From: Candidatus Methylomirabilota bacterium
GTDB taxonomy: Bacteria; Methylomirabilota; Methylomirabilia; Rokubacteriales; CSP1-6
Assembly: GCA_036556905.1 (NCBI GenBank)
Contig: DATBIM010000102.1
Coordinates: 70,714-134,713, forward strand
Direction of reading: 5' to 3'
Length of the DNA: 64,000 nt
The first letter of the stretch is position 1. Every line of letters starts with the position of its first letter. Shown in pieces: positions 2,128 to 48,452 of this stretch. Under the pieces are notes generated by a model. It had not been told where the DNA came from, ran no database searches, and saw only the letters and a program-made list of their open reading frames with translations. A program made the translations under genes and the position numbers.

Positions 2128-2367
2128 ATGAGATCACGAGTGATGTTGGCGGCGGTGGCGATGCTCGCGCTCGTTGCTGCCGGCTGCACATCGTATTACC
2201 GCATCAAGGACACGACCTCCGGCCGCACCTACTACACCGAGGAGTTCAAGCGGCGCAACGGGACGCTGATCTTCAAGGACACCAAGTCCGGAGCGGAGAT
2301 CACCCTCCCCTCGTCGGAGATCGCCGAAGTGTCGGAGGACGAGTACAAGAAGAACACCGCTAAATGA
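2128..2367 (+). CDS. small lipoprotein (~79 aa)
   Basis: ATG after GGGAGAGATAGCC; signal peptide plus lipobox LVAAGC; stop overlaps the next start (ATGA). Confidence 0.5.
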   Translation: MRSRVMLAAVAMLALVAAGCTSYYRIKDTTSGRTYYTEEFKRRNGTLIFKDTKSGAEITLPSSEIAEVSEDEYKKNTAK

Positions 2368-3401
2368 GCGCCGTGATCGCTCGCCTCTGGCGCCCGCTCC
2401 TTGGTAGCGTGGCCCTCGGCCTGGTGCTGGCCGGGAGCGTGGCGGCGGATGAGATCTTGCTGCTCAACGGCGACCGCCTGACGGGCAAGGTCGTCGGCGC
2501 CGCCGGTGGCAAGCTCACCATCAAGACCGAGGCGGCCGGCGAGGTCACCGTGGACCTGGCCAAGGTCAAGACCTTCTCCACCGACGAGCCCATCGTGTTC
2601 AGGGTCGGCGAGGCCACGCTGCGCTCGCGCGCCACGGCCGGCGCTGACGGGACGGTCCAGATCATTCCGGGCCCCGGGGAAGCGCCCCGGGTGGTCGCGC
2701 TCAAGGACGTTGCCCAGATCAATCCGCCCCCCGTGAGGTGGACGGGCGCCCTCTCTCTCACGGGAATGGTTACCCGCGGCAACTCGGAGACGTCGAACAT
2801 CGCCGCATCCTTGAACGCCGTCCGGCGCTCGGAGCACGACCGCATCACGCTGGGGGCCGGCTACGCCTACGGCCGGGAGAAGGACCAGGACACGGGCGAC
2901 GAGTCGTCGACCGTCGACAACATGTTCGGCTTCGGGAAGTATGACTACTTCGTGTCCAAGCGGCTCTATCTCTTCGGCGCGGTTCGGGCGGAACGCGATC
3001 GGATCGCCGACCTCGACCTCCGCTTCACCCCGAGCGTCGGTGTCGGTTACCAGTGGTTCGAGACCCCGACCTTCAATCTCTCCAGCGAGGCGGGCCTGGC
3101 CTGGGTCTACGAGGACTACCGTGACCAGGGCAGCGACGACCACTTCGCGGCGCGGCTGGCCTACCACGTGGACTGGACGCCGTACAAGGCGGTCACGCTG
3201 TTCCACAATCTCGAGTGGCTGCCCGCCTTCGACGACCCGTTCGACGACTACAATCTGAACGGCGACGCCGGTCTGCGGGCCGCGATCTTCCAGGGCTTCT
3301 TCGCCGAGGCCAAGGTCGAGCTCCGCTACGACGCGACGCCGGCGCCCGGGAACAAGAAAGAGGATGTGCGCTATCTCGTGGGCATCGGCTGGTCGTTCTG
3401 A
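2364..3401 (+). CDS. DUF481 (YdiY-like) outer-membrane beta-barrel protein
   Basis: Signal peptide; N-terminal 'DEILLLNGDRLTGKVVG' motif typical of DUF481; Y/G-rich amphipathic strands; C-terminal ...GIGWSF. Confidence 0.6.
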   Translation: MSAVIARLWRPLLGSVALGLVLAGSVAADEILLLNGDRLTGKVVGAAGGKLTIKTEAAGEVTVDLAKVKTFSTDEPIVFRVGEATLRSRATAGADGTVQIIPGPGEAPRVVALKDVAQINPPPVRWTGALSLTGMVTRGNSETSNIAASLNAVRRSEHDRITLGAGYAYGREKDQDTGDESSTVDNMFGFGKYDYFVSKRLYLFGAVRAERDRIADLDLRFTPSVGVGYQWFETPTFNLSSEAGLAWVYEDYRDQGSDDHFAARLAYHVDWTPYKAVTLFHNLEWLPAFDDPFDDYNLNGDAGLRAAIFQGFFAEAKVELRYDATPAPGNKKEDVRYLVGIGWSF

Positions 3402-3494: not shown

Positions 3495-6194
3495 TCAGCG
3501 CTGACCGTCAATCGCCGGGGGCGGACTCACCCGGGGAAGCTCCACGTGCACCGTGAGACCCCCGCCAGGATTGCCGGTGGCCCACATCCGCCCGTCGTGG
3601 GCGCTGACGATCGAGCGACTGATCGAGAGGCCCATGCCGAGCCCGTCGCGCTTGGTGCTGACAAAGGGGGCGAAGATTCGCTCCAGGTCCGAGTCGGGCA
3701 CCCCGACGCCGGTATCGGAAACGGTAAGCTCCACCGACCCCGCCGCGGACGCCGCCGTGGCGACGGTGATCTCCCGGCGCGTTGCGGCGCCGGCGCCGAT
3801 GGCGTCGGCGGCGTTGACGAGGAGGTTCAGGAGCACCTGTTGCAGCTGGACGGGATCGGCCATCACGGGCGGGAGGGACGGGGCCAGGTCGAAGGTGGTG
3901 ATGATGCCCTTACTCTGGAAATCGTGGCGCAGCAGCGTGGTCACGCCCATGACGAGCCCGTTGCAGTCCACCGGTTCGGGTCTGGCCTCCTCTCGCCTGG
4001 CCAGGGCCCGGAGCCGCCCGATGATGAGGGCCGCCCGCTTGGCGTCCTCTGAGATGTCGGCGAGGGCGTCCCGGAGATCTTCGGGGCCGGCCGAGGAGGC
4101 CTCCACCATCCGGCGGGCGGCCTGGGCGTTGGTGAGGATGGCGGCCAGCGGTTGATTGATCTCGTGGGCCAGCGCCGCGGTCAGCTCGCCCATGGTCGTC
4201 GTACGGAGCACGTGGGCCAGCTCGTCGCGCTGGTGTCGGGCCTCCTCCTCGGCCCGCCGCCGTCGGGTGATGTCGATGTGCGAGATGATGGCGCCGCCCT
4301 CCGGCCGTCGGAACGGCTCCACGACCAGCTCGAACCAGCGCTCGCCCGCCGGCGTGCTGGCCGGATACTCGAATGAGGCCTGGGGCGTCACGCCAGCGAG
4401 GACGGACTCGATCGCATCGAGCATCGGCTTGGCATACGGCTCCCCGGCCGCGGCGGCCTGGCGGCAGACGGCCAGGTAGTTCGCCCCGACGGGCGGCCGG
4501 GCAAATTCCGCCCCCGACTCCCCGATGGCCTGCGTCCACGACTCGTTGATGGTCAGGATCACGCCATCACGATCAACGGCCGCGAGTTGCCCGTAGAGCG
4601 ACGAGAAGGCGGCGCTGCGCAGCATCGTGTGCTCGAGGAGCATCTGTCGGGCTGCCCTGACGTCGGTGACATCGATCCCGGAACCCATGTAGCCGAGGAA
4701 CTCGCCACGGGCGTCCACGCGGGGCACGCCGTGGTCGAGGATCCAGCGGAACTCGCCGTCGGCGCGCCGGAGCCGGTACTCGAGGGTGAACGGCTCGCGG
4801 GCCGCGAAGGCTCGACGATATTCGCCGAGGCACTGCGTGACGTCCTCGGGATGGATGCCTTCCGTCCAGCCGTCGCCCAGCTCCTCCTCGAGCCTCCGTC
4901 CCGTGAACTGAAGCCAGCGGGTATTGAAGTAGGTGCAGCGGGCATCGACGCCCGCCAGCCACAGCATGGAGGGGAACGTCTCCGCCATCAGCAGGAAGCG
5001 CTGCTCGCTCTCGCGCATGGCGATCTGGGCCTGATCGAGCCCGCGCTGGACGTGCCGTCGTCGACGCCGCTCGAGGAGCAGACCGGCGATGAGCGCGGCC
5101 TGCAGGGCGATCAGGGCGGTGGCGCCGACGATGGGCCACCGGTAGAGCTCCCAGGCCGACGGCGAGCGGAAGCGCACGATGCTGCCGGCCGGAAGGCGGC
5201 GCTCACTGATAGACCAGCGCCGGAGCTGCCGGGCATCGAACATGGTGATGGCCCCGTCCTGCAGGATGACCTCCGGGGCGAGGGGTTCCCCCCGGAGAAC
5301 GCGGAGTCCGAGCTCGGCAGCCCTCGCGCCCAGGGCCTCGAAGCTGATCAGGGCACCACCGACGATGCCGTGGCCGAGTAGCGTGTCGGCAACGCTGTAG
5401 ATGGGCACGGGGGCGCCGGTGGCGACCTGCTTGAGCGCGTCGGGCGTGGTGAAGGTGCGGCCAGCGCCGTCGCGCAGGAAGCCACCCATAATGATGACGG
5501 TGCGCCTGGGCAGGGCCCGCACCGCCTCCAGGACCTGCGGCATGGGCAGGCCGGTCAAGTAGCCGAGCTGGACACGGTCGCGGTATCCCGAGAAGGCCTC
5601 CCGAGCCTGTGCTTCCAGGCCGCGATCGCTGTCACCGGCGCCTCCGACGAAGACGACGCGCTCGGTGTCGGGATGCAACCTCAGCACTAGCTCCAGTGTG
5701 GCCGCCCACGGCAGAACCATCGACACGCCCGTAACACCGGGCGGGAGCCGGGGCTGCCCGAGGGCTGAGGAGACGGGCTGGCAGAACACGATCGGGACCT
5801 CCGGGAAGGCCGCGGCCCGTTCCCGGAGGATGAGCCGGGTCATACCATCCCCGCACACCACGATCAGGTCCAGGCGACTCGCCGCATACTTCCGCGCCAG
5901 CAGCCGGAGCAGGTCGTGCTCGTTCCCCTGATTCGCCAGCCAGGAGAGGTCGATGTACTCGGTGTAGAAGCGGAGCGGCTCCGGGGAGCCCGCTTCGAGC
6001 GTCCTTCGCAATCCCTGGTCCAGGCTGATGACGGCCGGCACCAACCGAGCTTCCCCATAGATCAACAGCACCGATCTGGCGTCCGCGCCGGCGGTCTCCG
6101 TGGCCGTGACCACCAGCGAGGTCGCGAGGACGAAGATCAGACGGAGCGAAGCCAGCGCGAGGAGATTGTGAGGATCCATCCTGGCTGGCATAGT
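3495..6194 (-). CDS. hybrid sensor histidine kinase: periplasmic ABC-type substrate-binding-like domain, TM, PAS/PAC, HisKA, HATPase_c
   Basis: N-terminal signal peptide/TM plus a ~300-aa SBP-like domain; TM; PAS; H-box 'LAHEINQPL'; G-box 'DTGVGVP...GLGMGLSISRSIV'; start chosen at MPARMDPHN (track ORF runs to 6278). Confidence 0.75.
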   Translation of the reverse strand, partial: TMPARMDPHNLLALASLRLIFVLATSLVVTATETAGADARSVLLIYGEARLVPAVISLDQGLRRTLEAGSPEPLRFYTEYIDLSWLANQGNEHDLLRLLARKYAASRLDLIVVCGDGMTRLILRERAAAFPEVPIVFCQPVSSALGQPRLPPGVTGVSMVLPWAATLELVLRLHPDTERVVFVGGAGDSDRGLEAQAREAFSGYRDRVQLGYLTGLPMPQVLEAVRALPRRTVIIMGGFLRDGAGRTFTTPDALKQVATGAPVPIYSVADTLLGHGIVGGALISFEALGARAAELGLRVLRGEPLAPEVILQDGAITMFDARQLRRWSISERRLPAGSIVRFRSPSAWELYRWPIVGATALIALQAALIAGLLLERRRRRHVQRGLDQAQIAMRESEQRFLLMAETFPSMLWLAGVDARCTYFNTRWLQFTGRRLEEELGDGWTEGIHPEDVTQCLGEYRRAFAAREPFTLEYRLRRADGEFRWILDHGVPRVDARGEFLGYMGSGIDVTDVRAARQMLLEHTMLRSAAFSSLYGQLAAVDRDGVILTINESWTQAIGESGAEFARPPVGANYLAVCRQAAAAGEPYAKPMLDAIESVLAGVTPQASFEYPASTPAGERWFELVVEPFRRPEGGAIISHIDITRRRRAEEEARHQRDELAHVLRTTTMGELTAALAHEINQPLAAILTNAQAARRMVEASSAGPEDLRDALADISEDAKRAALIIGRLRALARREEARPEPVDCNGLVMGVTTLLRHDFQSKGIITTFDLAPSLPPVMADPVQLQQVLLNLLVNAADAIGAGAATRREITVATAASAAGSVELTVSDTGVGVPDSDLERIFAPFVSTKRDGLGMGLSISRSIVSAHDGRMWATGNPGGGLTVHVELPRVSPPPAIDGQR

Positions 6195-6334
6195 CGCCAC
6201 GAAGCATAGCGCGTGGGCGGTCACAGATCTAGCACGCACCTGCCGAGCGCCCGCATAGGACGAAGGTCGTAGTCCCAAGCCTGCCGACTTGTGTCACCCT
6301 CTCGCTGAGTTCCCCCACAGAAAGGAGAGCGTTC

Positions 6335-7051
6335 ATGAAACTGAGGTGCGAGCCGAGAACACGTGTTCGGATGCTGGCCGCCCTCGCCGCCCTGAGCCTC
6401 GTCGCCGGTGGGGCGGTTTCCGTCCGCGCCGACGACAAGATGGCCGCCGAGCAGCTGGTCACCAGAGCGAAGCTCGTGGTCGAGAGCTTCACCGCGGACG
6501 AGAAGATGGGCTCGCTCCGCGATAATGCGAAGAAGGCCAAGGCTATGTTCGTGGTGCCGGAGGCTTTGCGGGCGGCGTTCATCATCGGGGGCCAGGGAGG
6601 CAGCGGTGTCCTGGTCGCCCGCGACGCCAAGACCAAACGGTGGCTGGGCCCGACGTTCCACACTCTCGGCGGAGCCAGCTTCGGGTTCCAGGCCGGCGCG
6701 GATGCGGCCGAGGTGGTCGCCCTCGCGATGACCGAACGCGGCCTGACCAAGCTCCTCAGCCCAACCGTCACGCTGGGAGGAGACGCCAGCGTGGCGCTCG
6801 GACCCGTCAGCGCTGGTGCGGGAGCCGCCACGGCCGGGCTGAGCGCGGACATCCTGGTTTACTCCCGCTCCAAGGGGCTCTACGGCGGGTTCTCGGCCGA
6901 AGGCGCCGTGGTGAGCGTGAGGGACTCCCTCAACAAGGCGTATTACGGCAAGGAGGTCAGCCCGAGCGACGTCCTGGTGCGTGGCACCCCGCGTAACCCG
7001 AAGGGCGAGCCGCTGCTGAAGGCGGTCGATAAGCTCGCGGCCGCGAAATAG
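6335..7051 (+). CDS. SYLF/Ysc84 (DUF500) domain lipid-binding protein, secreted
   Basis: RBS AAAGGAGAG; signal peptide; conserved SYLF core 'FVVPEALRAAFIIGGQGGSGVLVARD...WLGPTFHTLGGASFGFQAGA'. Confidence 0.6.
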   Translation: MKLRCEPRTRVRMLAALAALSLVAGGAVSVRADDKMAAEQLVTRAKLVVESFTADEKMGSLRDNAKKAKAMFVVPEALRAAFIIGGQGGSGVLVARDAKTKRWLGPTFHTLGGASFGFQAGADAAEVVALAMTERGLTKLLSPTVTLGGDASVALGPVSAGAGAATAGLSADILVYSRSKGLYGGFSAEGAVVSVRDSLNKAYYGKEVSPSDVLVRGTPRNPKGEPLLKAVDKLAAAK

Positions 7052-7091
7052 CGCAGACTCGCCGGCCGGGAACACCAGGCGATCGGGAGAT

Positions 7092-8594
7092 TCACGAGCG
7101 CCCGGGGCCGAAGAATCGGGTGGCGCCGGGATGCAGGGGGATAGTGACGCCTCTGAGCGCGCTGTCCTTGGTCGCCTTGACGCCCTCGGCGCTCCCGGCC
7201 CCGGCGAGATCGGCCCCGGCGAAGACGAGGCTGACCACGTTCTCGACCTCGGCGTCCGGCGCGTCGGTCGTGCTGACGAGCAGCGCCGCCGTCGCTACCG
7301 TAGCGATGGGCTCGCCCTGACCGGGATAGGTGTTGACCGGCAGCGTCATCGCCACGAGGCCGGGGTTCTCGGCGAGGAGGCGGTTGATGCGGGGACTGGG
7401 CAGGGGCAGCAGCCGCATTCCTGTCCCCGCCGCCAGCTTCTGGAGATCCCGGGCGGGAGGGGCGATGGTGACGAAAAACGCGTCGAGCTGGCCGGCGCCG
7501 AGCCGCCGTATGGCCTCTTCGCGTCCGCGCTCGCTCGCCTCGCCCAGGTCGCGAACCCCGAGGCCATGGACCGCCAGCACCGCGACGGCGCTATATTGCG
7601 TCCCTGACCCCGACGGGCCGATATCAACGCGCTTGCCGCGCAGGTCCTCGATGGTGCGGATCGGTGAGGCTGCCGGCACGACGACGTGCACTGCCTCCGG
7701 GAAGAGGCTGCCCAGCGCGCGCAGCGTGGTGAGCGGACCACCCCGTGCGAATGGCCCGCGCCCGGCCACGGCTTGGGTCGCGACGTCGGCCTGAATGATC
7801 GCGTAGTCAGCCTCCCCGCGCGCGAGCAGCCCGGCGTTCTGCACGCTTCCCTCTGTCTCGACGTTTCGGAGGGCCACCTCGGGCCGCACCTTCTTCACGC
7901 TGGCCACCAGCGCCGCCCCGAAGCGCGCGTACTCGCCGCCGCGGGGACCGCTGGCGAACGTGTAGACGTGCTGGCGGCGCGCCAGGCGGCGCTGGATGTT
8001 CTCCGTGGCCCGCTGCAGCTCGTCGGAGATCACCTCATCCTGTCGGGGATCGACTCCGGGCGGCGGGATGGCGACCATCGCGGCCAGCTTGTCGATGAGC
8101 TGCTTCGACCGGGACGGTGGCGCCGTGTTCTCGGGGTCGGGCGCCGCGGTCACGGCGCCCGGCGCGGCCGCCACGCTCTTCCACGCGTCGCCGGACCACT
8201 CGTAGGTGGAAGATCCGTAGACGTGCACCATGTCGCCGGCGCGGTTCTGGGGCTTGATGCCGAAGAGGCCCTTCTCCGTCGCCCCCAGGGCAAAGCCAAG
8301 GCTGGCCGGGCTGAGCTGCTCCCAGCCGGCAAAGTCGTAGTCTTGGCGGAAGCGCAGGACGGCGTTGTAGTAGACGATCAGCCGCTTCGTCCCCTGCTCC
8401 CCCGAGGGGAGTGGCGCGCTGCCCTTACGGCCGAGGGACGCTAACTCGAGGAGACCGTCCTTGACCTGCTTCGCCAGCTTCTCCTGGACCTCCCGTCGCA
8501 GCGTCGCCTCGTCGGGACCTCGGGCACAGCCCACCAGCATGGTCGCGGTGAGAACCGCGAGTCCGGCCCACACCCTGGCCCGCACGCGCCGCAT
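7092..8594 (-). CDS. TAXI-family TRAP-type solute-binding lipoprotein with a ~190-aa N-terminal extension
   Basis: True start is the internal M (MRRVRARVWAGLAVLTATMLVGC lipobox); the upstream 300 codons of the track ORF are GC-junk overlapping gltS; TAXI core 'HVYTFASGPRGGEYARFGAALVASVKK...GEADYAIIQADVA'. Confidence 0.65.
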   Translation of the reverse strand: MRRVRARVWAGLAVLTATMLVGCARGPDEATLRREVQEKLAKQVKDGLLELASLGRKGSAPLPSGEQGTKRLIVYYNAVLRFRQDYDFAGWEQLSPASLGFALGATEKGLFGIKPQNRAGDMVHVYGSSTYEWSGDAWKSVAAAPGAVTAAPDPENTAPPSRSKQLIDKLAAMVAIPPPGVDPRQDEVISDELQRATENIQRRLARRQHVYTFASGPRGGEYARFGAALVASVKKVRPEVALRNVETEGSVQNAGLLARGEADYAIIQADVATQAVAGRGPFARGGPLTTLRALGSLFPEAVHVVVPAASPIRTIEDLRGKRVDIGPSGSGTQYSAVAVLAVHGLGVRDLGEASERGREEAIRRLGAGQLDAFFVTIAPPARDLQKLAAGTGMRLLPLPSPRINRLLAENPGLVAMTLPVNTYPGQGEPIATVATAALLVSTTDAPDAEVENVVSLVFAGADLAGAGSAEGVKATKDSALRGVTIPLHPGATRFFGPGRS

Positions 8595-8596
8595 CC

Positions 8597-9805
8597 TCAG
8601 AACCCGAACAGTGGCAGGGTCAGGTACCCCTGGATGATGAGGGCATTGGTGATATCGATGAAGAAGGCCCCGACCATCGGAACAATGAGGAAGGCCAGCG
8701 GAGAGGGCCCCGCCCGCCCGGTCACCGCCTTCATGATGGCCAGGGCGGCGGCCGTGGACGACATGCCGAAGCCGACGTGGCCGGCGGCCATGATGGCCGC
8801 ATCGTAGTTTCGGCCCATCACCCGGAATGTCACGAAGACGGCATAGGCGGCCATGGCCACCGTCTGTAGCGCCAGGATGAGCAGCAAGGGGCCGGCCAGG
8901 TTCACCAGGTCGAGCAGCTTCATCGCCATCAGCGCCATGACGAGGAAGAGCGACAACGCGGTGCCGCCCAGCAGGTCCACGCTGGCCTCGCTCAGCGAGA
9001 ACCGCCGGGTCAGTGGCAGGACGTTCCTCACCACGACGCCGAGCAGGAGGCAGAAGAGGAAGTCGGGAAGGATGAACCCGGTGCCCTCCATCAGGTGTGC
9101 CAGCAACTGCCCGCCGGCCAGGCATGCCAGAATCACGAACAGGGCGTTGAGGAACGACGCGGCGGTGACGGAGTCCTCCGGCGCGCCCGCCGACGTCGGC
9201 GCCGCCTCCACGGGCGCCGCCTCGGTCGGGCCCGAGAGGCCGTGACGCTTGATGAGGAACTCGGCCAGGGGGCCGCCCAGCAGACCGCCCAGCACCAGAC
9301 CAGCGGTGGCGCAGGCCATGGTCAGCTCCATTGCGCCCTGCAGGTTCATCGTCTCGCCGAAGCGGGTGGCGTAGGCGCCGCCGGTTCCGTGACCGCCGGT
9401 GAGGGTGATGGAGCCGCCCAGGAGACCGACCACCGGGTGCAGGTCCATGGCCCGGGCGGCGACCAGCCCGATCGCGTTCTGGACCACGATGTACACCGTG
9501 CACACCAGCAGGAAGATGAAGAGTTTGGGGCCGCCCTTGACGAGCATCCGGGCATCGGCGGCCAGCCCGACCGACGTGAAGAAGGCCAGCAGGAGCGGAT
9601 CCTTGAGGCTCATGTCGAAGGAGACCCGGGTCCCGGCGAAGCCATCGGCCGTGGCCAGCACGATGGCGATCACGACGCCGCCCACGACGGGCGCGGGCAC
9701 GCTGAAGCGCCCCAGCCAGCCCACCCGGGCCACCAGCACCCGGCCGGCGAAGAGTACGACGATGGCCACCAGGAGCGTGTAGAGCAGGTTGAGCTCGAAC
9801 TTCAC
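8597..9805 (-). CDS. gltS: sodium/glutamate symporter GltS family
   Basis: 402 aa, ~12 TM; N-terminus 'MKFELNLLYTLLVAIVVLFAGRVL' and overall pattern typical of GltS (ESS family); 2-nt gap to the downstream TAXI gene. Confidence 0.75.
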   Translation of the reverse strand: MKFELNLLYTLLVAIVVLFAGRVLVARVGWLGRFSVPAPVVGGVVIAIVLATADGFAGTRVSFDMSLKDPLLLAFFTSVGLAADARMLVKGGPKLFIFLLVCTVYIVVQNAIGLVAARAMDLHPVVGLLGGSITLTGGHGTGGAYATRFGETMNLQGAMELTMACATAGLVLGGLLGGPLAEFLIKRHGLSGPTEAAPVEAAPTSAGAPEDSVTAASFLNALFVILACLAGGQLLAHLMEGTGFILPDFLFCLLLGVVVRNVLPLTRRFSLSEASVDLLGGTALSLFLVMALMAMKLLDLVNLAGPLLLILALQTVAMAAYAVFVTFRVMGRNYDAAIMAAGHVGFGMSSTAAALAIMKAVTGRAGPSPLAFLIVPMVGAFFIDITNALIIQGYLTLPLFGF

Positions 9806-9815
9806 AGGCTCCTCG

Positions 9816-11207
9816 TCAGAGCAGATCCAGCTCGTAGTTGATGATGATGCGATAGTCCACGAGCGTGGAGGCGTCGCCCCGGCCCACGTAGGCGTTGCGG
9901 AAGCGCAGCGAGAGCCCCTTCACGGTCGGCACGTTGTAGGTGACGTCGAGATTTCCCTCGTGGGTATTGGGCTGGCTGCTTCCCGTCGCCGGGTCCTCGC
10001 GATCGGTGCCCATGGCGTAGAGCAGGTGCACGGTCAGGCCCGGGAGCGACAAGGGCAGCAGCGCCCCCCCGAAGTCGTACTTGACACCCACCCCGAACGC
10101 CTTCTCGTTGGCCCGGTCGAAATCCGTGACCATCAGAGACAGGTAGCCAGGCCACGAGCCCCAGGGGGAGCGGATCGAGGCTTCGTCGCCGGTGAAGTGC
10201 GTGGCCGCCCCCAGGGACAGGCCCTTGAACAGGAGGCGTGCCCCCGCGCCGACGTTCCAGGTGTTGAACTCGCCCAGCCGCTGGTCCCCGACATCTCGCT
10301 GGTCGGTGAACTGCAGACCGAACTGCATCTTGAGGTCTCGGCTGAACGCGTGCGTGTACTCGCCCTTGAGGAACGTGGTGTTGAACACCTCCTGGGCGTA
10401 ATAATTGCCGGCGTAGAGCAGCAGATCCTTGATCGGCGTGAAGGCCAGGGAGGTCAGGATCAGCCCTTCGTCGCCGCCGGCTGCGCCCGCCTGTTGAGAC
10501 ATCGAGATGAAGTCGTTCGAGTCCCGAGGCTTGATGTTCCAGACATACCCCACGTCGTACCGGAGCCGGTCGAGCGTACCGGAGAGGGTGACGGCCTCGA
10601 AGGTGTTCGGGACCATCCGATTGTCTTGCGGGTTCACGTAGCCGTCGTCGATCTTCTGGCGGTACCCCTTGAAGAGGGCGTATTCCTTGTAGCGAAGCGC
10701 CGCCCAGGCCTCCCCGAACACTCCGATCTCGTCCCCGTCGGGCGTCAGCAGCAGGGTCCCCAGACGGTCGTCGGGGGCGTAGAGCGGCCAGGAGGTGTAG
10801 TACGTCGAGCCGATGGCGAAGATGTCGGCGAGCCAGCCGGAGGCGTACTGCAGCCAGCCGCCGAGCGCCCAGGCCTCGCTGGCCGTGTCGTTGTCGTTCT
10901 GGCGGTTGAAGTAGAAGGTGCGGAACCGGACGTTCAGATCGGTGTCGCGGAAGAACGGATCGAGCTTGCTCATCTCGTCCCGCAGCGCCGGGTAGCCGGT
11001 CTCGAGCAGGCCCGTCTGGGGCGGGGGAGGCGGGGCCGCGTCGGGCGACCGAACGGTCACGTCCTCCTCGAGGATCGGGGCCTTCGGCGGGGCTGCCGGC
11101 GCCGGTTGGGCGGGGCCGGGTTTCGGCGCCGGCTGGGCGACGGCCTGTCCCAGCCCCACCACGCATAGCAGCAGCGTCAGCGCGGGCAGCTGCCACCGCA
11201 CGCTCAT
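9816..11207 (-). CDS. outer-membrane porin (OprD-like / specific-channel beta-barrel)
   Basis: Start at MSVRWQ with signal peptide ...GQAVAQP; AAGGAGG SD that also overlaps the asdA stop; Pro-rich linker then alternating amphipathic strands; C-terminal YELDLL. Confidence 0.5.
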   Translation of the reverse strand: MSVRWQLPALTLLLCVVGLGQAVAQPAPKPGPAQPAPAAPPKAPILEEDVTVRSPDAAPPPPPQTGLLETGYPALRDEMSKLDPFFRDTDLNVRFRTFYFNRQNDNDTASEAWALGGWLQYASGWLADIFAIGSTYYTSWPLYAPDDRLGTLLLTPDGDEIGVFGEAWAALRYKEYALFKGYRQKIDDGYVNPQDNRMVPNTFEAVTLSGTLDRLRYDVGYVWNIKPRDSNDFISMSQQAGAAGGDEGLILTSLAFTPIKDLLLYAGNYYAQEVFNTTFLKGEYTHAFSRDLKMQFGLQFTDQRDVGDQRLGEFNTWNVGAGARLLFKGLSLGAATHFTGDEASIRSPWGSWPGYLSLMVTDFDRANEKAFGVGVKYDFGGALLPLSLPGLTVHLLYAMGTDREDPATGSSQPNTHEGNLDVTYNVPTVKGLSLRFRNAYVGRGDASTLVDYRIIINYELDLL

Positions 11208-11217
11208 CGCCTCCTCC

Positions 11218-12828
11218 TTACTTTTTCGGCGCGCGCTTCGAAGCCTCGAACGCATCCCGGTAGCCGCGGGCAATCGCGCGGACCCCGCGCCCGATGTCGT
11301 CGTACACGTCGTCGCCCAGGTTGGCCAGGGACACGCGGAGCGACCAGTCCGGGGCCTCGAAACCGCCGCCGTTGAGCAGCACGATGCCGTGGGCCTCGGC
11401 CAGCCGGAAGGCGAGGTCCAGCGGGTGGACGTTCTTCTTGAGATAGGTGACCGCCTCCTCGCCGATGTTCTTCCGGGCCCAGAACTCGAAGTCGATGAGG
11501 CCGTAGTAGGCGTCGAAGAGCGGGTTGGGGGCCACTTCCAGGCCCAGCCCTTCGAGGAGCGCCCGGGCCCGTCGATGCACGATCTCCATGCAGGTCTTCT
11601 GGTAGCGCTTCTCGGTGTCCATGAGCTCGGACAGGGAGAACATGGTCATCATGACCTGCTGGGGCAGGGAGAGTCCCGCCGTGTGGTTCAGGCCGACGTC
11701 CCGGCTGTCCGCCACGATGCGGTCGATGAACTTGATCTTCCGGGGCTCGAGGGTGAGCGCGCCGTAGCGCTTGTCGAGCGCCTTCAGCGGGTCGCCGGTG
11801 TGCTTGGCGATCATTTTGTCGTAGATGTTGTCCTGGTGGAGCGCGATGACGCCCAGGCGCCATCCCGTGCAGCCAAAGTACTTCGAGTACGAGTAGACGC
11901 CGATGGTGTTGTGCGGCAACTCGCCGAGGAGCGATCGGAAGCCGGGCACGAAGGTCCCGTACACGTCGTCGGTCAGCAGCATGAGGTCGGGCCGCTTCGT
12001 CTTCACCAGGCTCGCGATCTTGCCGATGCTCTCCTTGCTCAAGGCCACTCCGGTGGGATTGCCGGGGTTGACGAGGAAGAAGGCCTTGATCTTGGGATCC
12101 TCGAGCTTCTTGAGCTCGGCGTCGGTGGGCTGGAAGCGGTTTTCCTGCGGCGACGCGATGTTGACCACGTTCAGCGCGTAGTCCTCCAGATGCGTCATCT
12201 CGAGGTAGGGTGTGAAGATCGGCGTGCCCAGCGCGATGGTGTCGCCGGGCATGAGGAGACGGTTGGCCTTGAGCGACTTGAAGAGATAGCACATGGCCGC
12301 GGTTCCGCCCTCGACCGCGTAGAGGTCGAACTTGCCGGCGGGGCGGGGATCCCCGCACATCGCCCACTGGAGGTACTCGTGCACGACTCGCTCGTTGTGC
12401 ACGAGCATGCGATCGGGGACGGGGTAGTTGTCCCCGATGATCGAGTCCACCAGCTCGTGGACGAAGGCGTCGGGATCGAACTTGAACGTCTTGACCGCGA
12501 AGGCCACCATCTTGCCGAGGAAGGCCGCCCCCGGTGAGTCAGGGTGCTTGGCGAGCCAGGCCTCCAGGCGGGCGGCGATGCCCGGGGCGGCGGGCATGCC
12601 CGCGACACCGGCGGGATGCTCCATCACACGGCGGCTCTCGGTGAGGGCGAACTGGCCGAGCAGGAAGAAGCCTTCCCGCGGCTCGGTGGCGATCCAGTTC
12701 GGGTTGCCGCGGCCGGCGTTGAGGAAGGCGGTCTGCGTGGTCCTGGACGTCTTCTTGGCGAGCTTGATCAGCTCGTCCTTGATCTCGAACGGCCCCATCT
12801 TGTCGAACTGTGTCAGGTCGATGGTCAT
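11218..12828 (-). CDS. asdA: bifunctional aspartate aminotransferase / L-aspartate 4-(beta)-decarboxylase
   Basis: 536 aa; hallmark AsdA blocks 'FEIKDELIKLA','LNAGRGNPN','YPVPDRML','LYAVEGGTAAM','YSYSKYFGCTGWRLGVIA','FIDRIVADSR','LNHTAGLSLPQQV','RVSLANL'. Confidence 0.8.
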   Translation of the reverse strand: MTIDLTQFDKMGPFEIKDELIKLAKKTSRTTQTAFLNAGRGNPNWIATEPREGFFLLGQFALTESRRVMEHPAGVAGMPAAPGIAARLEAWLAKHPDSPGAAFLGKMVAFAVKTFKFDPDAFVHELVDSIIGDNYPVPDRMLVHNERVVHEYLQWAMCGDPRPAGKFDLYAVEGGTAAMCYLFKSLKANRLLMPGDTIALGTPIFTPYLEMTHLEDYALNVVNIASPQENRFQPTDAELKKLEDPKIKAFFLVNPGNPTGVALSKESIGKIASLVKTKRPDLMLLTDDVYGTFVPGFRSLLGELPHNTIGVYSYSKYFGCTGWRLGVIALHQDNIYDKMIAKHTGDPLKALDKRYGALTLEPRKIKFIDRIVADSRDVGLNHTAGLSLPQQVMMTMFSLSELMDTEKRYQKTCMEIVHRRARALLEGLGLEVAPNPLFDAYYGLIDFEFWARKNIGEEAVTYLKKNVHPLDLAFRLAEAHGIVLLNGGGFEAPDWSLRVSLANLGDDVYDDIGRGVRAIARGYRDAFEASKRAPKK

Positions 12829-12860
12829 GGGTAGGCTCCTCGATAGGGTTCAGAGATTCA

Positions 12861-14558
12861 TCAAGAGAGCATGAGAATGATCACCATGCCCCAGATCGTC
12901 AGCAGCGTGTTGCCGATGGCGTAGGTGACGGTATACCCGAGCGCGGGTATCTGGCTCTTGGCCGCATCAGTGACCATGCCGAGTGAGGCGGTGGTCGTGC
13001 GCGCTCCGGAGACCGCGCCCAGCAGGATCGCGTCGTGGAAGCGGAACAGGTACTTGCCGATGTACATGGCGAGGATCAGGGGCACCGTCGTCGCCACGGC
13101 GCCCCACATGAACAGGCTCAGGCCCTGCGTCTTCAGGCCGTTGATGAAGCCCGGGCCGGCCGAGATGCCGACGATGGCAATGAAGATGTTGAGGCCGACC
13201 GAGTTCATGAACCAGACGGTCGACGACGGGATGCGCCCGAAGGACGGCCGCACCGAGCGCAGCCAGCCGAACACGAGCCCCGAGATGAGGGCGCCGCCGG
13301 CGGTGGACAGCGTCAACGGCACTCCGCCGATCTTCCAGACCAGCGCGCCGATCAGGGCGCCGATCGTGACCGCGCCCCCGATGAAGGCGACGTCGGCCAC
13401 GTCGGAAGGTCGATCGGGAACGCCCAGCAGCTTGGTGACGACGGTGGTGTCCTGCGTGCGGCCGACGATGTTGAGGATGTCGCCGCGCTCGATCTTCGTG
13501 TTCGGAAGGATGGGAATGGTGGTGGCGGTTGCCCCCCGCGTGATCTGGCGAAGGAAGACGCCGCGCGCCTCGGGCCGCTGGGCCAGCTCCGCCAGCGTCT
13601 TGCCGTCGACCGCCTTGTTGGTCACGTAGACGTCGACGCCTTCGACCGGGACGGCGAGCAGCTCCGGGTCATCGACCTCCTGCGCCTTCTCGCCGATCAC
13701 CTTCACGAGCACTTCGCGGGTTCCGGCGATGGCCACCACGTCCCCTTCACGGATCACGGTGTCGGCCGTGCCCTCCTCGATTGTCCCGTTGCTGCGGCGG
13801 ATGCGCTCCACGAAGACCCGGGCATTGGGCACCATCGCCTCGGCCTCGACGGCCCGGAGGCCGATGGCCTTGCCGCCCGGCTGCACGCGGAAGGCCCGCA
13901 GCTCCCAACGATGCCAGGCGGAGCCTGCGCCGCCCAGCGCCTTGGCGCCACCACCCTGCTTCTCCTCGTAGTCCTTGCACGCGGCCACCAGATTGATGCG
14001 GAGCAGGGCCGGGCCGACGATCGCGATCACGATCGCCGAACCGACCGTGCCGAAGAGGTACGTCACGGCATAGGCGATGGGCATCGCGTCGAGCAGCCCC
14101 TTGGCCTGGTCGCCGGATAACCCTAGCCGGTTGATGGCATCCGTCGCGAGGCCCATCGAAGCCGAGATGGTCTGCGATCCCGCATACAGCCCGGCCGCGT
14201 AGCCGAGATCGTAGCCGGCCACCTTGGCGACGCCGAAGGCGGCACCCAGGCAGAGCACGCACACGACGGCTGCGTAGATCGCCTGCGGCAAGCCGTCCTT
14301 GGCCACGCCCCGGACGAACTGCGGGCCGACGCCGTAGCCGACGGCGAACAGGAACATCAGGAAGGCAAACGCCTTGAGGGGCTGCGAGATGGTGATCCCG
14401 AGCTGCCCGATGACGACCGCGGCCAGCAGGGTGGCGGTGACGGCCCCCAGGCCGATGCCACGGTAGGTGAACTTGCCGACGTAGTATCCGATCCCCAGAG
14501 AGAGGAAGATGGCGATCTCCGGATACGTGCGCAGCGTCGCGGCGAACCACTCAAACAT
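12861..14558 (-). CDS. aspT: AAE-family (AspT/YidE/YbjL) aspartate:alanine exchanger-like transporter
   Basis: 565 aa; two membrane halves separated by two TrkA-C/RCK_C domains ('[15 protein letters not shown]', '[14 protein letters not shown]'); N-terminus '[29 protein letters not shown]' typical of AAE; located between two PLP decarboxylases. Confidence 0.8.
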
Positions 14559-14570
14559 GGTGTCCTCCGT

Positions 14571-17309
14571 CTAGCGCTTGTGCGTGGCCAGCGCGTCAGG
14601 CTTCAGCAGCTCCAGGCCCTTGGCCGCGTTGTAGCCGTGGATCTCCTTCACGTCGAGCTTGCGCATGAACGTGATGATCTCTTTGGTGACGACCTGGCCC
14701 GGCACCATGATGGGGAAGCCGGGCGGGTAGGGGATCACGAACTTCGCCGAGACCAGCTCCGGGCCCTTGGCCAAGCGCTCGTCGATCTCCTTGCTCTGGA
14801 GCTTGACGTGCTCGATGTTGGCGGCATCGTACGCCATGTAGTACGCCTCGCGCATGTGCCCTTCCTGGGTGGCGCTCTTCGCATTGTCCCGGAAGGCGTC
14901 GTGGAAGCGCTGGAAGTCGGGCAGGTCGGGCACGTCCTCGACCAGCGACTTCACCCGCGCCTTGAAGGCGGCCAGCTCCTCTTCGCCCCCCTCGGCGAGC
15001 CGCTTCTCGATGGCCCGCGCCATGTCGGCCAGGGCCTTGATCAGATGGGCGAGGTCGCTCCGGGTGTTGTTGATGTTGATCTGGACGAGCACGCTGTTGC
15101 GGGAGGTCTTGTTGATCTGGATGTCGTGCTCGCTGGCCAGCAGCGCCTTGAACTGGGTGCCGTCGTACGCGGCAGCCCCGCAGAGGAGCGTGATCCGGGT
15201 CGGATCCAGGTAGAACTCGTCGTTGTCCAGCGCCCCGATCGTGTCGTTCATCGTCCACCCCGGTGCGCCCCAGTCGGTGAAGCCCGACTTCCGGTACTCG
15301 GCGGGGATCATCTCGGCCGGGGTGGCGATGCGGAAGTACTTGGAGATGAGGGGGTGCGAGTTGACCTGACGCCGGACTTCGATGGCCAGCTGGATGGCCC
15401 GCCCGACGAGCTCGTAGCCCTCCAGCTCCATCTGCCGGCGCGCCACGTCCAGCGAGGCGATGATCTGGAGATTCGGCGAGGTCGAGGTGTGGGTGAAGAA
15501 CGCCTCCTTGAAGGAGGCCTCTACCGTGTAGAAATCCTGATCGGCGACGACAATGATCGAGCCCTGGCGGAGCGAGGACATCGACTTGTGCACCGAGTCG
15601 GTTTCGTAGACACGGACGCGCACCTGGTCGGGATCCGGCAGCAGCTCCATGTCCACCAGCTTCGGGTCCTTCGGGTCCAGCTTGCCGGCGCTGGCTCGGA
15701 ACGCCTCGTAGCGCTTGCGGTACTCCGGGTCGCGCATCAGCTCGCGAATGGCGGCCGCCGCGCCCATGGCCGTGCGGCGACGTAGAAATGGCGAGAAGCG
15801 GGCGAACCCGAACCACGCCTCGTCCCACAGAAAGATCAGATCGGGCTTGATGGCCAGACATTCCAGCATGGTCCGTTTGGTGTTGGCGACGTGGCCGTCG
15901 AAGGTGCAGTTGGTCAGGACCACCATCTTCGCGCGGTCCAGCTTGCCCTCGGCCTTGAGCTGAAGCAGGGCCTTCTTGATGGGCTTGATGGCCAGGCTGC
16001 CGTACATGGAGTACTGGGTGAGCGGGAACGCGTCGATGTAGAGCGGCTGGGCACCCGCCAGCACCAGCCCGTAGTGGTGCGACTTGTGACAGTCGCGGTC
16101 GATCAGCACGATGTCACCCGGCCGGAGCAGGGCCTGGTGGACGATCTTGTTCGAGGTGGAGGTGCCGTTGGTGACGAAGAAGCTGCGGTCGCCGCCGAGC
16201 GCGCGGGCGGCCTTGTCCTGGGCGACCTTGATGTTGCCGGTGGGCTCCAGCAGGCTGTCCAGCCCACCGGTGGTGGCCGAGGACTCGGCCAGGAACAGGT
16301 TGGCCCCGTAGAACTCGCCCATGTCGCGGATCCAGTTGGACTTGAAGATCGACTTTCCCCGGGCCACCGGCAGCGCGTGGAACGTGCCGATCGGGCGCTG
16401 GGCGTAGTTCTTGAGGTTATCGAAGTACGGCGTCTCGTAGCGGTCCTGCACCCCGTCGAGGATCGCCAGGTGGATCTCCATCGGCTCCTCGACCCCGTAG
16501 AAGATTCGCCGGATCGGCGCCGCCTCGGCGGAGCCGGCCAGGCGGCCGACGTCGCGGTCGGTGGTGAGGTAGACGTCGAGCTCCGGCCGCCAGCGGCGCA
16601 CCATCTGCCCCAGGAGGGTCCCTAGATCGCCGCTGCGCGCGGACTCGGCGATCTGCACCTGCCGGGTGAGGATCTCGCGCAGGATCGGCAGCGTGTGCTG
16701 CGAGGGGTAGGCGAAGCCGTCGCTGATCACGACGGCCTGCAAATTCGTGTTGAAGACCACGGCCAGGACCGCATCCTCGAAGCTGCCCACGACGACGGGC
16801 TCGTACACGAACTGGTCCTCGGCGCGGCGCAGCCGGCGAAACGTCTCCCGGATCTCCGGCCACATGGCCCGCTCGGCGGGCGACACATACAGAACCTCGA
16901 AGTAGGGTCGGCGGGCCTGGCCGCGACCGATCGACGGAGGCAGGACGTCGGGCAGGCGGGCCTCGCCCTCCTCGTCGGCCCTCCAGGGCTCCTGGTCGTC
17001 GCGGTAGCTGTTGGAGAGCAGCGCGCTGCTGATCCGCTGGACCAGACGAGCGAAGCCCGTCCAGTCCCCGGTCTCCAGGCGCTCGCGGAGCTGCGTCATC
17101 AATCGGGGTCCCGGGTAGCCGCAGAGGTCCTCCAGCGGTGCCAGCTCGGCCAGGAGCGCCTGCGGGTCCTCGCCAGGGCCGCCGGCCGGGCGCTGTCCAG
17201 TTCCGGCGAGCCCCTTGGCCACGCGGTTCAGCGTCCGCCAGCGGTCGATGCGCGCCTCTGAGGCGGCGAAGAAGTCCCGAAGAGTCGTCAGTTGAGTGGT
17301 GTCAGCCAT
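14571..17309 (-). CDS. Orn/Lys/Arg decarboxylase-family PLP-dependent decarboxylase (large, 912 aa, with N-terminal extension)
   Basis: OKR_DC_1 core 'SNWIRDMGEFYGANLFLAESSATTGGLDSLLEPTG...FFVTNGTSTSNKIVHQALLRPGDIVLIDRDCHKSHHYG'; wing domain 'YFEVLYV..VVGSFEDAV'; C-terminal OKR_DC_1_C. Confidence 0.75.
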   Translation of the reverse strand: MADTTQLTTLRDFFAASEARIDRWRTLNRVAKGLAGTGQRPAGGPGEDPQALLAELAPLEDLCGYPGPRLMTQLRERLETGDWTGFARLVQRISSALLSNSYRDDQEPWRADEEGEARLPDVLPPSIGRGQARRPYFEVLYVSPAERAMWPEIRETFRRLRRAEDQFVYEPVVVGSFEDAVLAVVFNTNLQAVVISDGFAYPSQHTLPILREILTRQVQIAESARSGDLGTLLGQMVRRWRPELDVYLTTDRDVGRLAGSAEAAPIRRIFYGVEEPMEIHLAILDGVQDRYETPYFDNLKNYAQRPIGTFHALPVARGKSIFKSNWIRDMGEFYGANLFLAESSATTGGLDSLLEPTGNIKVAQDKAARALGGDRSFFVTNGTSTSNKIVHQALLRPGDIVLIDRDCHKSHHYGLVLAGAQPLYIDAFPLTQYSMYGSLAIKPIKKALLQLKAEGKLDRAKMVVLTNCTFDGHVANTKRTMLECLAIKPDLIFLWDEAWFGFARFSPFLRRRTAMGAAAAIRELMRDPEYRKRYEAFRASAGKLDPKDPKLVDMELLPDPDQVRVRVYETDSVHKSMSSLRQGSIIVVADQDFYTVEASFKEAFFTHTSTSPNLQIIASLDVARRQMELEGYELVGRAIQLAIEVRRQVNSHPLISKYFRIATPAEMIPAEYRKSGFTDWGAPGWTMNDTIGALDNDEFYLDPTRITLLCGAAAYDGTQFKALLASEHDIQINKTSRNSVLVQININNTRSDLAHLIKALADMARAIEKRLAEGGEEELAAFKARVKSLVEDVPDLPDFQRFHDAFRDNAKSATQEGHMREAYYMAYDAANIEHVKLQSKEIDERLAKGPELVSAKFVIPYPPGFPIMVPGQVVTKEIITFMRKLDVKEIHGYNAAKGLELLKPDALATHKR

Positions 17310-47462: not shown

Positions 47463-48437
47463 ATGAAGGCAGTCCTGGCTGTACTGGCCGGCATCTGGAT
47501 GCTGCTGGCGACGGTCCCCGCCCAGGCGCAGCAGCGCGTCACCATGCTGGGCGGGCCGCCGGCGGGCGTGTTCGGGATCTTCGCGACGGGGATCAGCACC
47601 TACCTGTCGAAGGCGGTTCCCGACCTCAACGTGTCCGTGGCCGCCACCGCCGGCTCCGTCGAGAATCCGCGCCGCATCAATGCCGGCGACGGAGAGATCG
47701 GGATCTCGTTCTCCTCGGACGTCCACGAGGCCTTCCACGGTCTGGAGAAGTTCCAGGGCAAGCCCCTGACCAACCTTCGCGCGGTTGGCGTCGTCTTCAT
47801 GGGCGTGGGGCACCTGATCACCTTCGCCGACAGCGGGATCACGAGCGTCGCGGATCTGGCCGGCAAGCGCGTGGCCGTCGGCAATCCCGGCTCCGGGACG
47901 TTCGCCACCGCCGAGCGGATGTTTCGGGCCCTCAACATGTGGGACAAGATCACGCGGGTGCCGCTGCTCGGCGCCGCCGCCGGCGAGGCCATGAGCGAAG
48001 GCAAGGCCGACGCCTTTTTCTGGGGCGGCCCGGCGCCCGACCGGGTGACGACGGAGGCCGCCACCAAGAAGCCGGTGCGGGCCATCGACACCTATACGGC
48101 GCTGGCCAAGACCGACTTCTTCAAGCAGTATCCCTACTTCGCGAAGTACACGTTCGTGCCCGGCTCCTACCGGGGCATCACCGAGGAGGCCCACACGGTG
48201 GGCGTGCCCGCCCTGTGGATCGCGGGGAAGGACGTGTCCCCGGCGCTCGTGCAGAAGATGGCGGCGGCGGTCTACGGTCCCGAGGGCCACGCGCACATGA
48301 TGAAGGTCCACGCGGGCTCCAAGGACATGGCGCCCAAGTCGGCGTTGCTGGGGATCACCATCCCCCTGCACAAGGGCGCCGAAGATCACTGGAAGTCGGC
48401 GGGGGTGAGCATCCCCGAGAGCATCCGCGCCCGGTGA
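47463..48437 (+). CDS. TRAP transporter solute-binding protein, TAXI family
   Basis: RBS GAAAGGAG; signal peptide; '[25 protein letters not shown]' TAXI signature. Confidence 0.75.
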
Positions 48438-48452
48438 GCTGAGCCCGCCCGA

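Follow-up and report, generated by a model that had tools for sequence, protein, structure and literature searches.

To our knowledge, until 2024–25 the use of a binding protein by a secondary transporter was known only for the tripartite ATP-independent periplasmic (TRAP) and the tripartite tricarboxylate transporter (TTT) families. The TAXI-GltS class, in which a TRAP-associated extracytoplasmic immunogenic (TAXI) protein is paired with a glutamate symporter, was then described for BP0402/BP0403 of Bordetella pertussis, in a preprint of November 2024 (10.1101/2024.11.27.625746) and by Jaques et al. (Commun Biol, August 2025; PMC12344293). BP0403 (UniProt Q7VSK8) is a predicted lipoprotein of 503 amino acids (aa) with an α/β N-terminal domain (NTD, residues 20–139), likened to PilO (2RJZ), a helical domain and a TAXI domain (residues 208–503). 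It binds L-glutamate with a Kd of 180 nM, and the substitutions Y219A and Q263A each reduce the affinity more than 150-fold; glutamate was bound in a ligand screen, while aspartate, glutamine and dicarboxylates were not. The protein dimerizes through its helical domain and becomes monomeric upon an L201R substitution. The BP0403 gene and gltS (BP0402), which lies upstream of it, share 3 bp; both elongated and conventional-length TAXI genes lie adjacent to gltS in other bacteria, and TAXI-GltS fusions are found in Lachnospiraceae (PMC12344293). In this study, we analyzed a gltS-TAXI pair (7092–9805) carried by 64,000 nucleotides of contig DATBIM010000102.1 from a Candidatus Methylomirabilota bacterium; this whole 64-kb stretch is referred to as the window.

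As judged from its sequence, the window pair is a member of the TAXI-GltS class, matching the description of BP0403 feature by feature. At both loci gltS precedes the TAXI gene and the two appear to be translationally coupled, with a 3-bp overlap in B. pertussis and a 2-nt gap here, and there is no TRAP permease at either locus. Both TAXI proteins begin with a predicted lipoprotein signal peptide and are nearly equal in length (503 aa there, 500 aa here). The NTD spans residues 20–139 there and 24–141 here, the binding domain residues 208–503 there and 209–500 here, and the key ligand residues Y219/Q263 correspond to Y222/Q268. The NTD of BP0403 resembles PilO 2RJZ; that of the window protein may be PilO-like as well, its fold being of a generic NTF2/VirB8/PilO type. 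We therefore consider it quite probable that the window pair is a TAXI-GltS system, that is, a secondary Na+/L-glutamate symporter working with a dedicated membrane-tethered binding protein. An earlier note on this DNA had proposed a binding-protein-dependent GltS as one explanation of the gene pair. This is the best interpretation, although it has already been published for B. pertussis; the accompanying remark, by which GltS was not known to work with a binding protein, is outdated by that publication (PMC12344293).

The upstream gene of the pair, gltS (8597–9805, minus strand), was identified by TIGR00210, PF03616 and a BLASTP comparison with Escherichia coli GltS as coding for a 402-aa Na+/glutamate symporter of the ESS family (TC 2.A.27). 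Its product scores 433.8 bits against the TIGR00210 equivalog model (cutoff 310.75) over residues 3–398 of 402 and 397 bits against PF03616 (Pfam Glt_symporter). Aligned with E. coli K-12 GltS over residues 21–400 (E = 2e-105), it shows 48% identity with only 4 gap positions, and it carries no extra domain. The junction between the two genes, read off the sequence, is TGA-GG-ATG (8594–8599, minus strand): the gltS TGA occupies 8597–8599 and is followed by GG and by the TAXI ATG at 8594. The gap is thus 2 nt, as the earlier note had it, and such spacing indicates a likely translational coupling. A DctQ/DctM-type membrane component, the criterion for a TAXI-TRAP system, is absent from the adjacent positions; the neighboring membrane protein is GltS.

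The TAXI gene (7092–8594, minus strand) encodes 500 aa, which are divided into a signal peptide, the NTD, a helical linker and the C-terminal TAXI domain. The N terminus, MRRVRARVWAGLAVLTATMLVGC, has a basic n-region, a hydrophobic core and the lipobox L-V-G-C ending at Cys23 (residues 1–23; 8526–8594, minus strand), and on this pattern the protein is predicted to be a lipoprotein. The N-terminal lipoprotein extension reported in the earlier note is therefore present, together with its lipobox, but is about 205 aa long rather than about 190 aa. Residues 24–26 after Cys23 (8517–8525) follow the pattern [A/S/T]-R-G, with Ala at position +2 in the window protein. The lipobox Cys is followed by this pattern in 18 of the 18 loci measured; the pattern is nearly invariant in the family, and Asp does not occur at +2.

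An AlphaFold2 (AF2) monomer model, built from 33 homologues and having a mean predicted local distance difference test score (pLDDT) of 80.8, comprised a signal helix, an α/β unit at residues 24–141, a poorly modelled stretch at 144–179 and a confident binding domain from residue 209. In this model the NTD (residues 24–141, about 120 aa; 8172–8525, minus strand) is a single long helix lying against a curved antiparallel sheet. The interdomain linker and helical region (residues 142–208; 7971–8171, minus strand) contains helices at 162–171 and 183–208 with pLDDT values of 34–70, and the linker sequence, APPSRSKQLIDKLAAMV..PPPG..EEL.RA..I.RR, ranks among the most conserved stretches of the protein. 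Because the linker is conserved despite its low pLDDT, it has the pattern expected of an interface that becomes ordered only in an oligomer. By analogy with BP0403, and in keeping with its conservation, this region is a putative dimerization element, in which L204 would be equivalent, by a constant offset of +3, to the dimer-interface residue L201 of BP0403.

The substrate-binding domain (residues 209–500, with the stop codon 7092–7970, minus strand) was assigned by two family models and by structure. The match to TIGR02122 (TRAP_TAXI) covers residues 201–495 and scores 237.9 bits (cutoff 84.35), and that to PF16868 covers residues 213–495 and scores 193.6 bits. The best matches among solved structures in a Foldseek search with the C-terminal domain were glutamate-bound TtGluBP (1US4, 8U79) and VcGluP (8S4J, 9IBO), with target-normalised TM-scores of 0.84–0.85 and identities of 29–32%. 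A domain scan of the protein detected no signalling domain.

A scan of one genome per GTDB species gave 44 loci, which were then searched by tblastn with the window proteins. Eighteen of them (L001–L003, L005–L016, L018, L024 and L035) and one further locus (L045) hold an NTD-containing TAXI relative together with its upstream DNA, and gltS is located directly upstream on the same strand in all 19. Measured at 18 loci, the distance between the gltS stop and the best TAXI start codon was −4 to +3 nt in every case. The hosts belong to Methylomirabilota/Rokubacteria, Vicinamibacterales and other Acidobacteriota, Burkholderiales, Verrucomicrobiia and Myxococcota. Four distant members, 30–41% identical over the NTD and helical linker and including one from the complete genome of the cultured Indioceanicola profundi, likewise have gltS directly upstream (4/4). 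This brings the total to 23 of 23 elongated-TAXI loci, with Alphaproteobacteria among the host groups, and no TRAP permease was found within the flanks of these 23 loci. The adjacency, which the earlier note had suggested looking for in other genomes, thus recurs; since it is present in every related locus examined, it is not due to chance, and the coupling of gltS to an elongated TAXI gene is a family-wide rule.

TAXI relatives of conventional length, which match residues ~204–495 only, precede a fused DctM-type permease in L017, L019–L021, L023, L030–L032 and L034–L043. At E ≤ 1e-3, an exhaustive HMMER search with the NTD and linker alone yielded 251 clusters (50% identity). Nearly all of the full-length matches are 485–525 aa long and have the domain at the N terminus, and each of the 7 matches that were scanned bears a TAXI and/or a GltS domain. 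In three partial metagenomic proteins (P0210, P0154 and P0143), the C-terminal part of GltS runs directly into the NTD and TAXI domain; they could be genuine fusions, in the order opposite to that in Lachnospiraceae, or read-through artefacts at an overlapping stop and start. In another protein (P0153), the NTD and TAXI domain are joined to a SulP (Sulfate_transp) segment.

The ligand pocket was examined by mapping the binding site of VcGluP (PMC11574862) onto an alignment of the window TAXI protein and counting conservation over 240 family members. Residues Y45, S75, Q93, E125 and G156 of VcGluP, which contact the α-amino and α-carboxyl groups, correspond to Y222, S250, Q268, E300 and G331, each of which is retained in 231–237 of the 240 members (Y222 in 237, Q268 in 234). 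T332 and T376 agree with the TtGluBP variants at their positions. An L-amino acid as the ligand is well supported by these predicted contacts. The default choice, L-glutamate, is probable because the characterized member BP0403 binds glutamate but not aspartate, glutamine or dicarboxylates, because the window protein has a close homologue of GltS as its membrane partner, and because the pocket signature is invariant to gene context, as detailed below. In one family member (L013, 10001–11428), on a contig binned as 'Bifidobacteriaceae' that is probably mis-binned, given its soil-phylum-like sequence, the pocket is degenerate (Y to F, Q to E, E to V), although the gene belongs to a full cluster of decarboxylase, aspT, asdA and gltS genes; this protein may have a different ligand or may have lost binding.

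Gene anatomy, domain architecture, the conservation of the residues that anchor the ligand, and the linkage of an elongated TAXI gene to gltS were observed here, and the following mechanism would fit them. The 500-aa lipoprotein would be exported and lipid-anchored via Cys23 and, by analogy with BP0403, would most likely dimerize via the conserved helical linker and capture L-glutamate with high affinity in its TAXI domain. It would presumably hand the ligand to a GltS dimer, which would carry glutamate and Na+ across the inner membrane, with the α/β NTD probably docking on GltS or forming a bridge to it. Overall, this would amount to a scavenging form of GltS with high affinity.

The pair forms the last two genes of a minus-strand cluster (7092–17309) in the order decarboxylase, aspT, asdA, oprD, gltS, TAXI. 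The first gene (14571–17309, minus strand) encodes a 912-aa enzyme of the Orn/Lys/Arg-decarboxylase family (PF01276, 230.8 bits), which is divergent, its score not coming near any of the NCBIfam cutoffs for Lys, Arg or Orn decarboxylases; an AGGAG motif and an intergenic region of ~250 nt lie upstream of its ATG (17309). Next come the aspartate:alanine antiporter gene aspT (12861–14558, minus strand; TIGR03802 equivalog, 672.3 bits, cutoff 546.95) and the aspartate 4-decarboxylase gene asdA (11218–12828, minus strand; NF006755, 768.5 bits, and TIGR03801, 761.3 bits, both above cutoffs). The fourth gene encodes an OprD-family outer-membrane porin (9816–11207, minus strand; PF03573, 110.9 bits), whose likely start is the ATG at 11207 and whose signal peptide is MSVRWQLPALTLLLCVVGLGQAVAQ. 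The gaps are 12 nt between the decarboxylase gene and aspT, 32 nt between aspT and asdA, 10 nt between asdA and oprD, and 10 nt between oprD and gltS. Because of this tight spacing, the six genes probably form one co-expressed operon. A sigma-70 promoter scan of 6200–16500 found no promoter-like site, the model being little informative for an organism of 69% GC. Over the same range, 7 terminator-like sites were found against a shuffle mean of 3.8 (standard deviation 2.1), within ~1.5 standard deviations, and none at the operon end, a scan that is likewise uninformative at this GC content.

Parts of this cluster recur in the relatives. A decarboxylase homologue is located upstream on the same strand in 12 of the 19 related loci (L002, L005, L008, L010, L012–L016, L018, L024 and L045), abutting gltS directly in L010, L012, L014 and L024. 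AsdA is encoded within 10 kb in 9 of the 19, and AspT or an AspT paralogue in 12. The position after asdA in related clusters is taken by an OprD porin or by a second AspT paralogue, and an OprD gene is in or beside the cluster in 5 of 20 loci (the window, L002, L007, L015 and L018). Since the four distant members lack the decarboxylase/antiporter context, it is a feature of one clade. None of the words aspartate, decarboxylase, antiporter and porin occurs in the main text of PMC12344293, and in the papers that we searched no description was found linking TAXI-GltS with the decarboxylase/aspT/asdA/oprD combination.

Beyond the end of the cluster, a SYLF/Ysc84-domain lipoprotein gene (6335–7051, plus strand) converges on the TAXI gene, with the two stop codons 40 nt apart; such a gene is also found beside the gltS-TAXI pair in L001 and L016. 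It is followed by a gene for a 927-aa sensor histidine kinase (3495–6278, minus strand), which has a periplasmic domain weakly similar to ABC_sub_bind (PF04392) and PAS, HisKA and HATPase domains. The kinase gene also follows the pair in L001, and in L045 an ABC_sub_bind-like kinase and a GerE-type response regulator are encoded ~7 kb downstream; the window kinase may be a regulator of the six-gene cluster. Further on lies a gene for a DUF481 protein (2364–3401, plus strand). Neither the SYLF/Ysc84 lipoprotein nor the DUF481 protein has an obvious link to the transporter. Elsewhere in the window, the conventional TAXI-TRAP pair that the earlier note had placed at 47463–50354 (plus strand) was confirmed as an NMT1_3 protein with a fused DctM permease. 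Its TAXI protein has Phe at both the key Tyr and the key Gln positions, and because of these replacements it probably binds a ligand other than glutamate.

Several points weigh against TAXI-GltS glutamate uptake by the window pair. Jaques et al. themselves state that the functional coupling of TAXI and GltS still awaits experimental verification (PMC12344293). The homology to BP0403 rests on architecture, domain boundaries, key residues and gene order and not on a direct alignment. None of the 44 loci of the genome scan was from Bordetella; the retrieved proteins included no exact match when screened for the BP0403 residues A94, L201, Y219, Q263, D399, K400, A415, A423 and two Trp; when the clusters of ten representatives were looked up, Indioceanicola and Pseudolabrys were among the names and Bordetella was not; and another large homology search, for which the best partial match (P0084) served as the seed, returned metagenomic and Rokubacteria relatives only. 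The helical linker, to which dimerization is ascribed, has low confidence in the AF2 monomer model. Under the Lol sorting rule of E. coli, a lipoprotein without Asp at +2 goes to the outer membrane. The A/S/T at this position would thus mean outer-membrane sorting, which the proposed model of docking at the inner membrane does not expect, although the rule of the host phylum may differ; the published docking model likewise takes the lipoprotein to be anchored in the inner membrane. The distal part of the pocket is also unlike that of both crystallized glutamate binders (S40P, V44E, Y46A, H123F, Y200V and G203A in VcGluP numbering), and in VcGluP the distal residues hold the side-chain carboxylate of glutamate via water (PMC11574862). 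Because of these differences, glutamate specificity is no more than probable.

The replacement of the distal carboxylate-holding residues by P, E, A, F, V and A would suit a rival in which the same binding-protein and GltS machine takes up L-aspartate, or aspartate and glutamate, and thereby supplies or primes the AspT/AsdA cycle. Aspartate taken up in net terms would be converted to alanine, which AspT would swap for more aspartate. The position of gltS-TAXI at the end of a tight cluster with aspT and asdA argues for this, as does the recurrence of AsdA (9/19), an AspT-type antiporter (12/19) and the decarboxylase (12/19) in related loci. We nevertheless regard it as unlikely. In differential scanning fluorimetry, aspartate caused no thermal shift of BP0403 (PMC12344293) or VcGluP (PMC11574862), and E. 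coli GltS, to which the window GltS is 48% identical, is glutamate-selective (PMC12344293). The pocket signature, moreover, is independent of gene context: an aspartate switch in the aspT/asdA loci was sought by this signature, and signatures did not segregate with context. The signature of L003, a locus where neither a decarboxylase nor an antiporter is encoded nearby, is identical to that of the window, and L009 and L035, which also lack the context, share their signatures with L005, L015 or L016, which have it.

Another rival makes the lipoprotein a regulator or sensor that, on binding an amino acid, gates GltS, signals to the nearby histidine kinase or passes substrate from the OprD porin at the outer membrane. 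The NTF2/VirB8/PilO-type fold of the NTD is a generic one for protein–protein interaction, the residue at +2 is A/S/T and not Asp, an OprD gene belongs to or adjoins the cluster in the window and in four relatives (L002, L007, L015 and L018), and a histidine kinase with a binding-protein-like periplasmic domain is encoded 0.8 kb past the operon end. However, the coupling to gltS is family-wide, whereas the porin and the kinase are each found in a minority of loci; covalent TAXI-GltS fusions in Lachnospiraceae (PMC12344293) are hard to reconcile with an outer-membrane or kinase role, and the TAXI protein is without a signalling domain. This rival, which has little positive support, is in our view quite unlikely. 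No positive evidence was found for the suggestion of the earlier note that the TAXI domain senses substrate or chaperones it from the porin; just 5 of the 20 loci have an OprD gene within the cluster or next to it. It is extremely improbable that the TAXI protein is an orphan receptor serving a distant TRAP permease, with the adjacency to gltS a coincidence. Orphan TRAP binding-protein genes do exist (PMC12344293), and a TAXI-type fused permease is present in the window; however, that permease (48453–50354), the sole DctM gene of the window, has its own adjacent TAXI gene, whose product has F and F for the key Tyr and Gln of the pocket, and the 23 elongated-TAXI loci all have gltS directly upstream and no TRAP permease in their flanks. 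As a receptor for this particular permease, the TAXI protein was rejected, being effectively excluded by the recurrence data.

With TAXI-GltS retained as the preferred interpretation, we hypothesize that this clade regulates high-affinity glutamate uptake together with the aspartate/alanine decarboxylation-antiport module, which such uptake might also feed or prime. A more specific proposal, which is tentative and rather unlikely, is that TAXI-GltS acts as a high-affinity net-uptake primer or feeder of a decarboxylation-antiport cycle generating a proton motive force in the clade that spans soil Methylomirabilota, Acidobacteriota and Myxococcota. The pair would there be a constant part of a conserved cluster together with the divergent decarboxylase, AsdA, one or two AspT-type antiporters and, in some cases, an OprD porin of its own. 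In a weaker extension of it, the lipoprotein, having no E. coli-type inner-membrane retention signal, would bridge the porin and GltS. If true, the primer role would give a new transporter class a physiological role and define an undescribed multi-component energy module for acidic amino acids.

TAXI-GltS is the third class of secondary transporters that use a binding protein, and it has so far been backed by biochemistry of the binding protein, by models and by the gene neighborhoods of a few genomes. Our results indicate that the class is no curiosity of Bordetella: at 50% identity the extension-bearing family falls into about 250 clusters, with many members in soil phyla that are uncultured, the coupling between gltS and an elongated TAXI gene is invariant across the family examined, and the decarboxylase/antiporter operon around the pair in one large clade suggests a physiological context. 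The breadth in soil phyla, the invariant coupling and the undescribed operon context are added here, and the published basic picture is confirmed and extended by them, not changed.

The window locus can be set beside four known systems. Its GltS resembles E. coli GltS (b3653) in length (402 aa and 401 aa), in equivalog family and in sequence (48% identity). However, E. coli GltS is a binding-protein-independent Na+/glutamate symporter, unlike the system proposed here, and in E. coli K-12 its gene is located between recG and xanP with no binding-protein gene alongside, whereas the window gltS is coupled to a TAXI lipoprotein gene. AspT and AspD (AsdA) constitute an aspartate:alanine antiport and decarboxylation system of the Tetragenococcus halophilus type. 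As in that system, aspT and asdA are adjacent in the window, both passing equivalog models; the differences are a divergent decarboxylase upstream and oprD, gltS and the TAXI gene downstream. With the TAXI-TRAP systems, represented by VcGluP-VcGluQM of Vibrio cholerae (PMC11574862) and TtGluBP of Thermus thermophilus (1US4), the window protein shares the TAXI-domain fold and the residues that anchor the α-amino-acid part of the ligand. It differs from VcGluP and TtGluBP in six distal pocket residues; its partner is GltS in place of a fused DctQM permease, and it adds an NTD and helical linker of ~185 aa and a predicted lipid anchor. From BP0402/BP0403 the window pair is distinguished by its host, a soil Methylomirabilota/Rokubacteria-like organism in place of a betaproteobacterial pathogen, and by its position at the end of a six-gene cluster with the decarboxylase gene, aspT, asdA and oprD.

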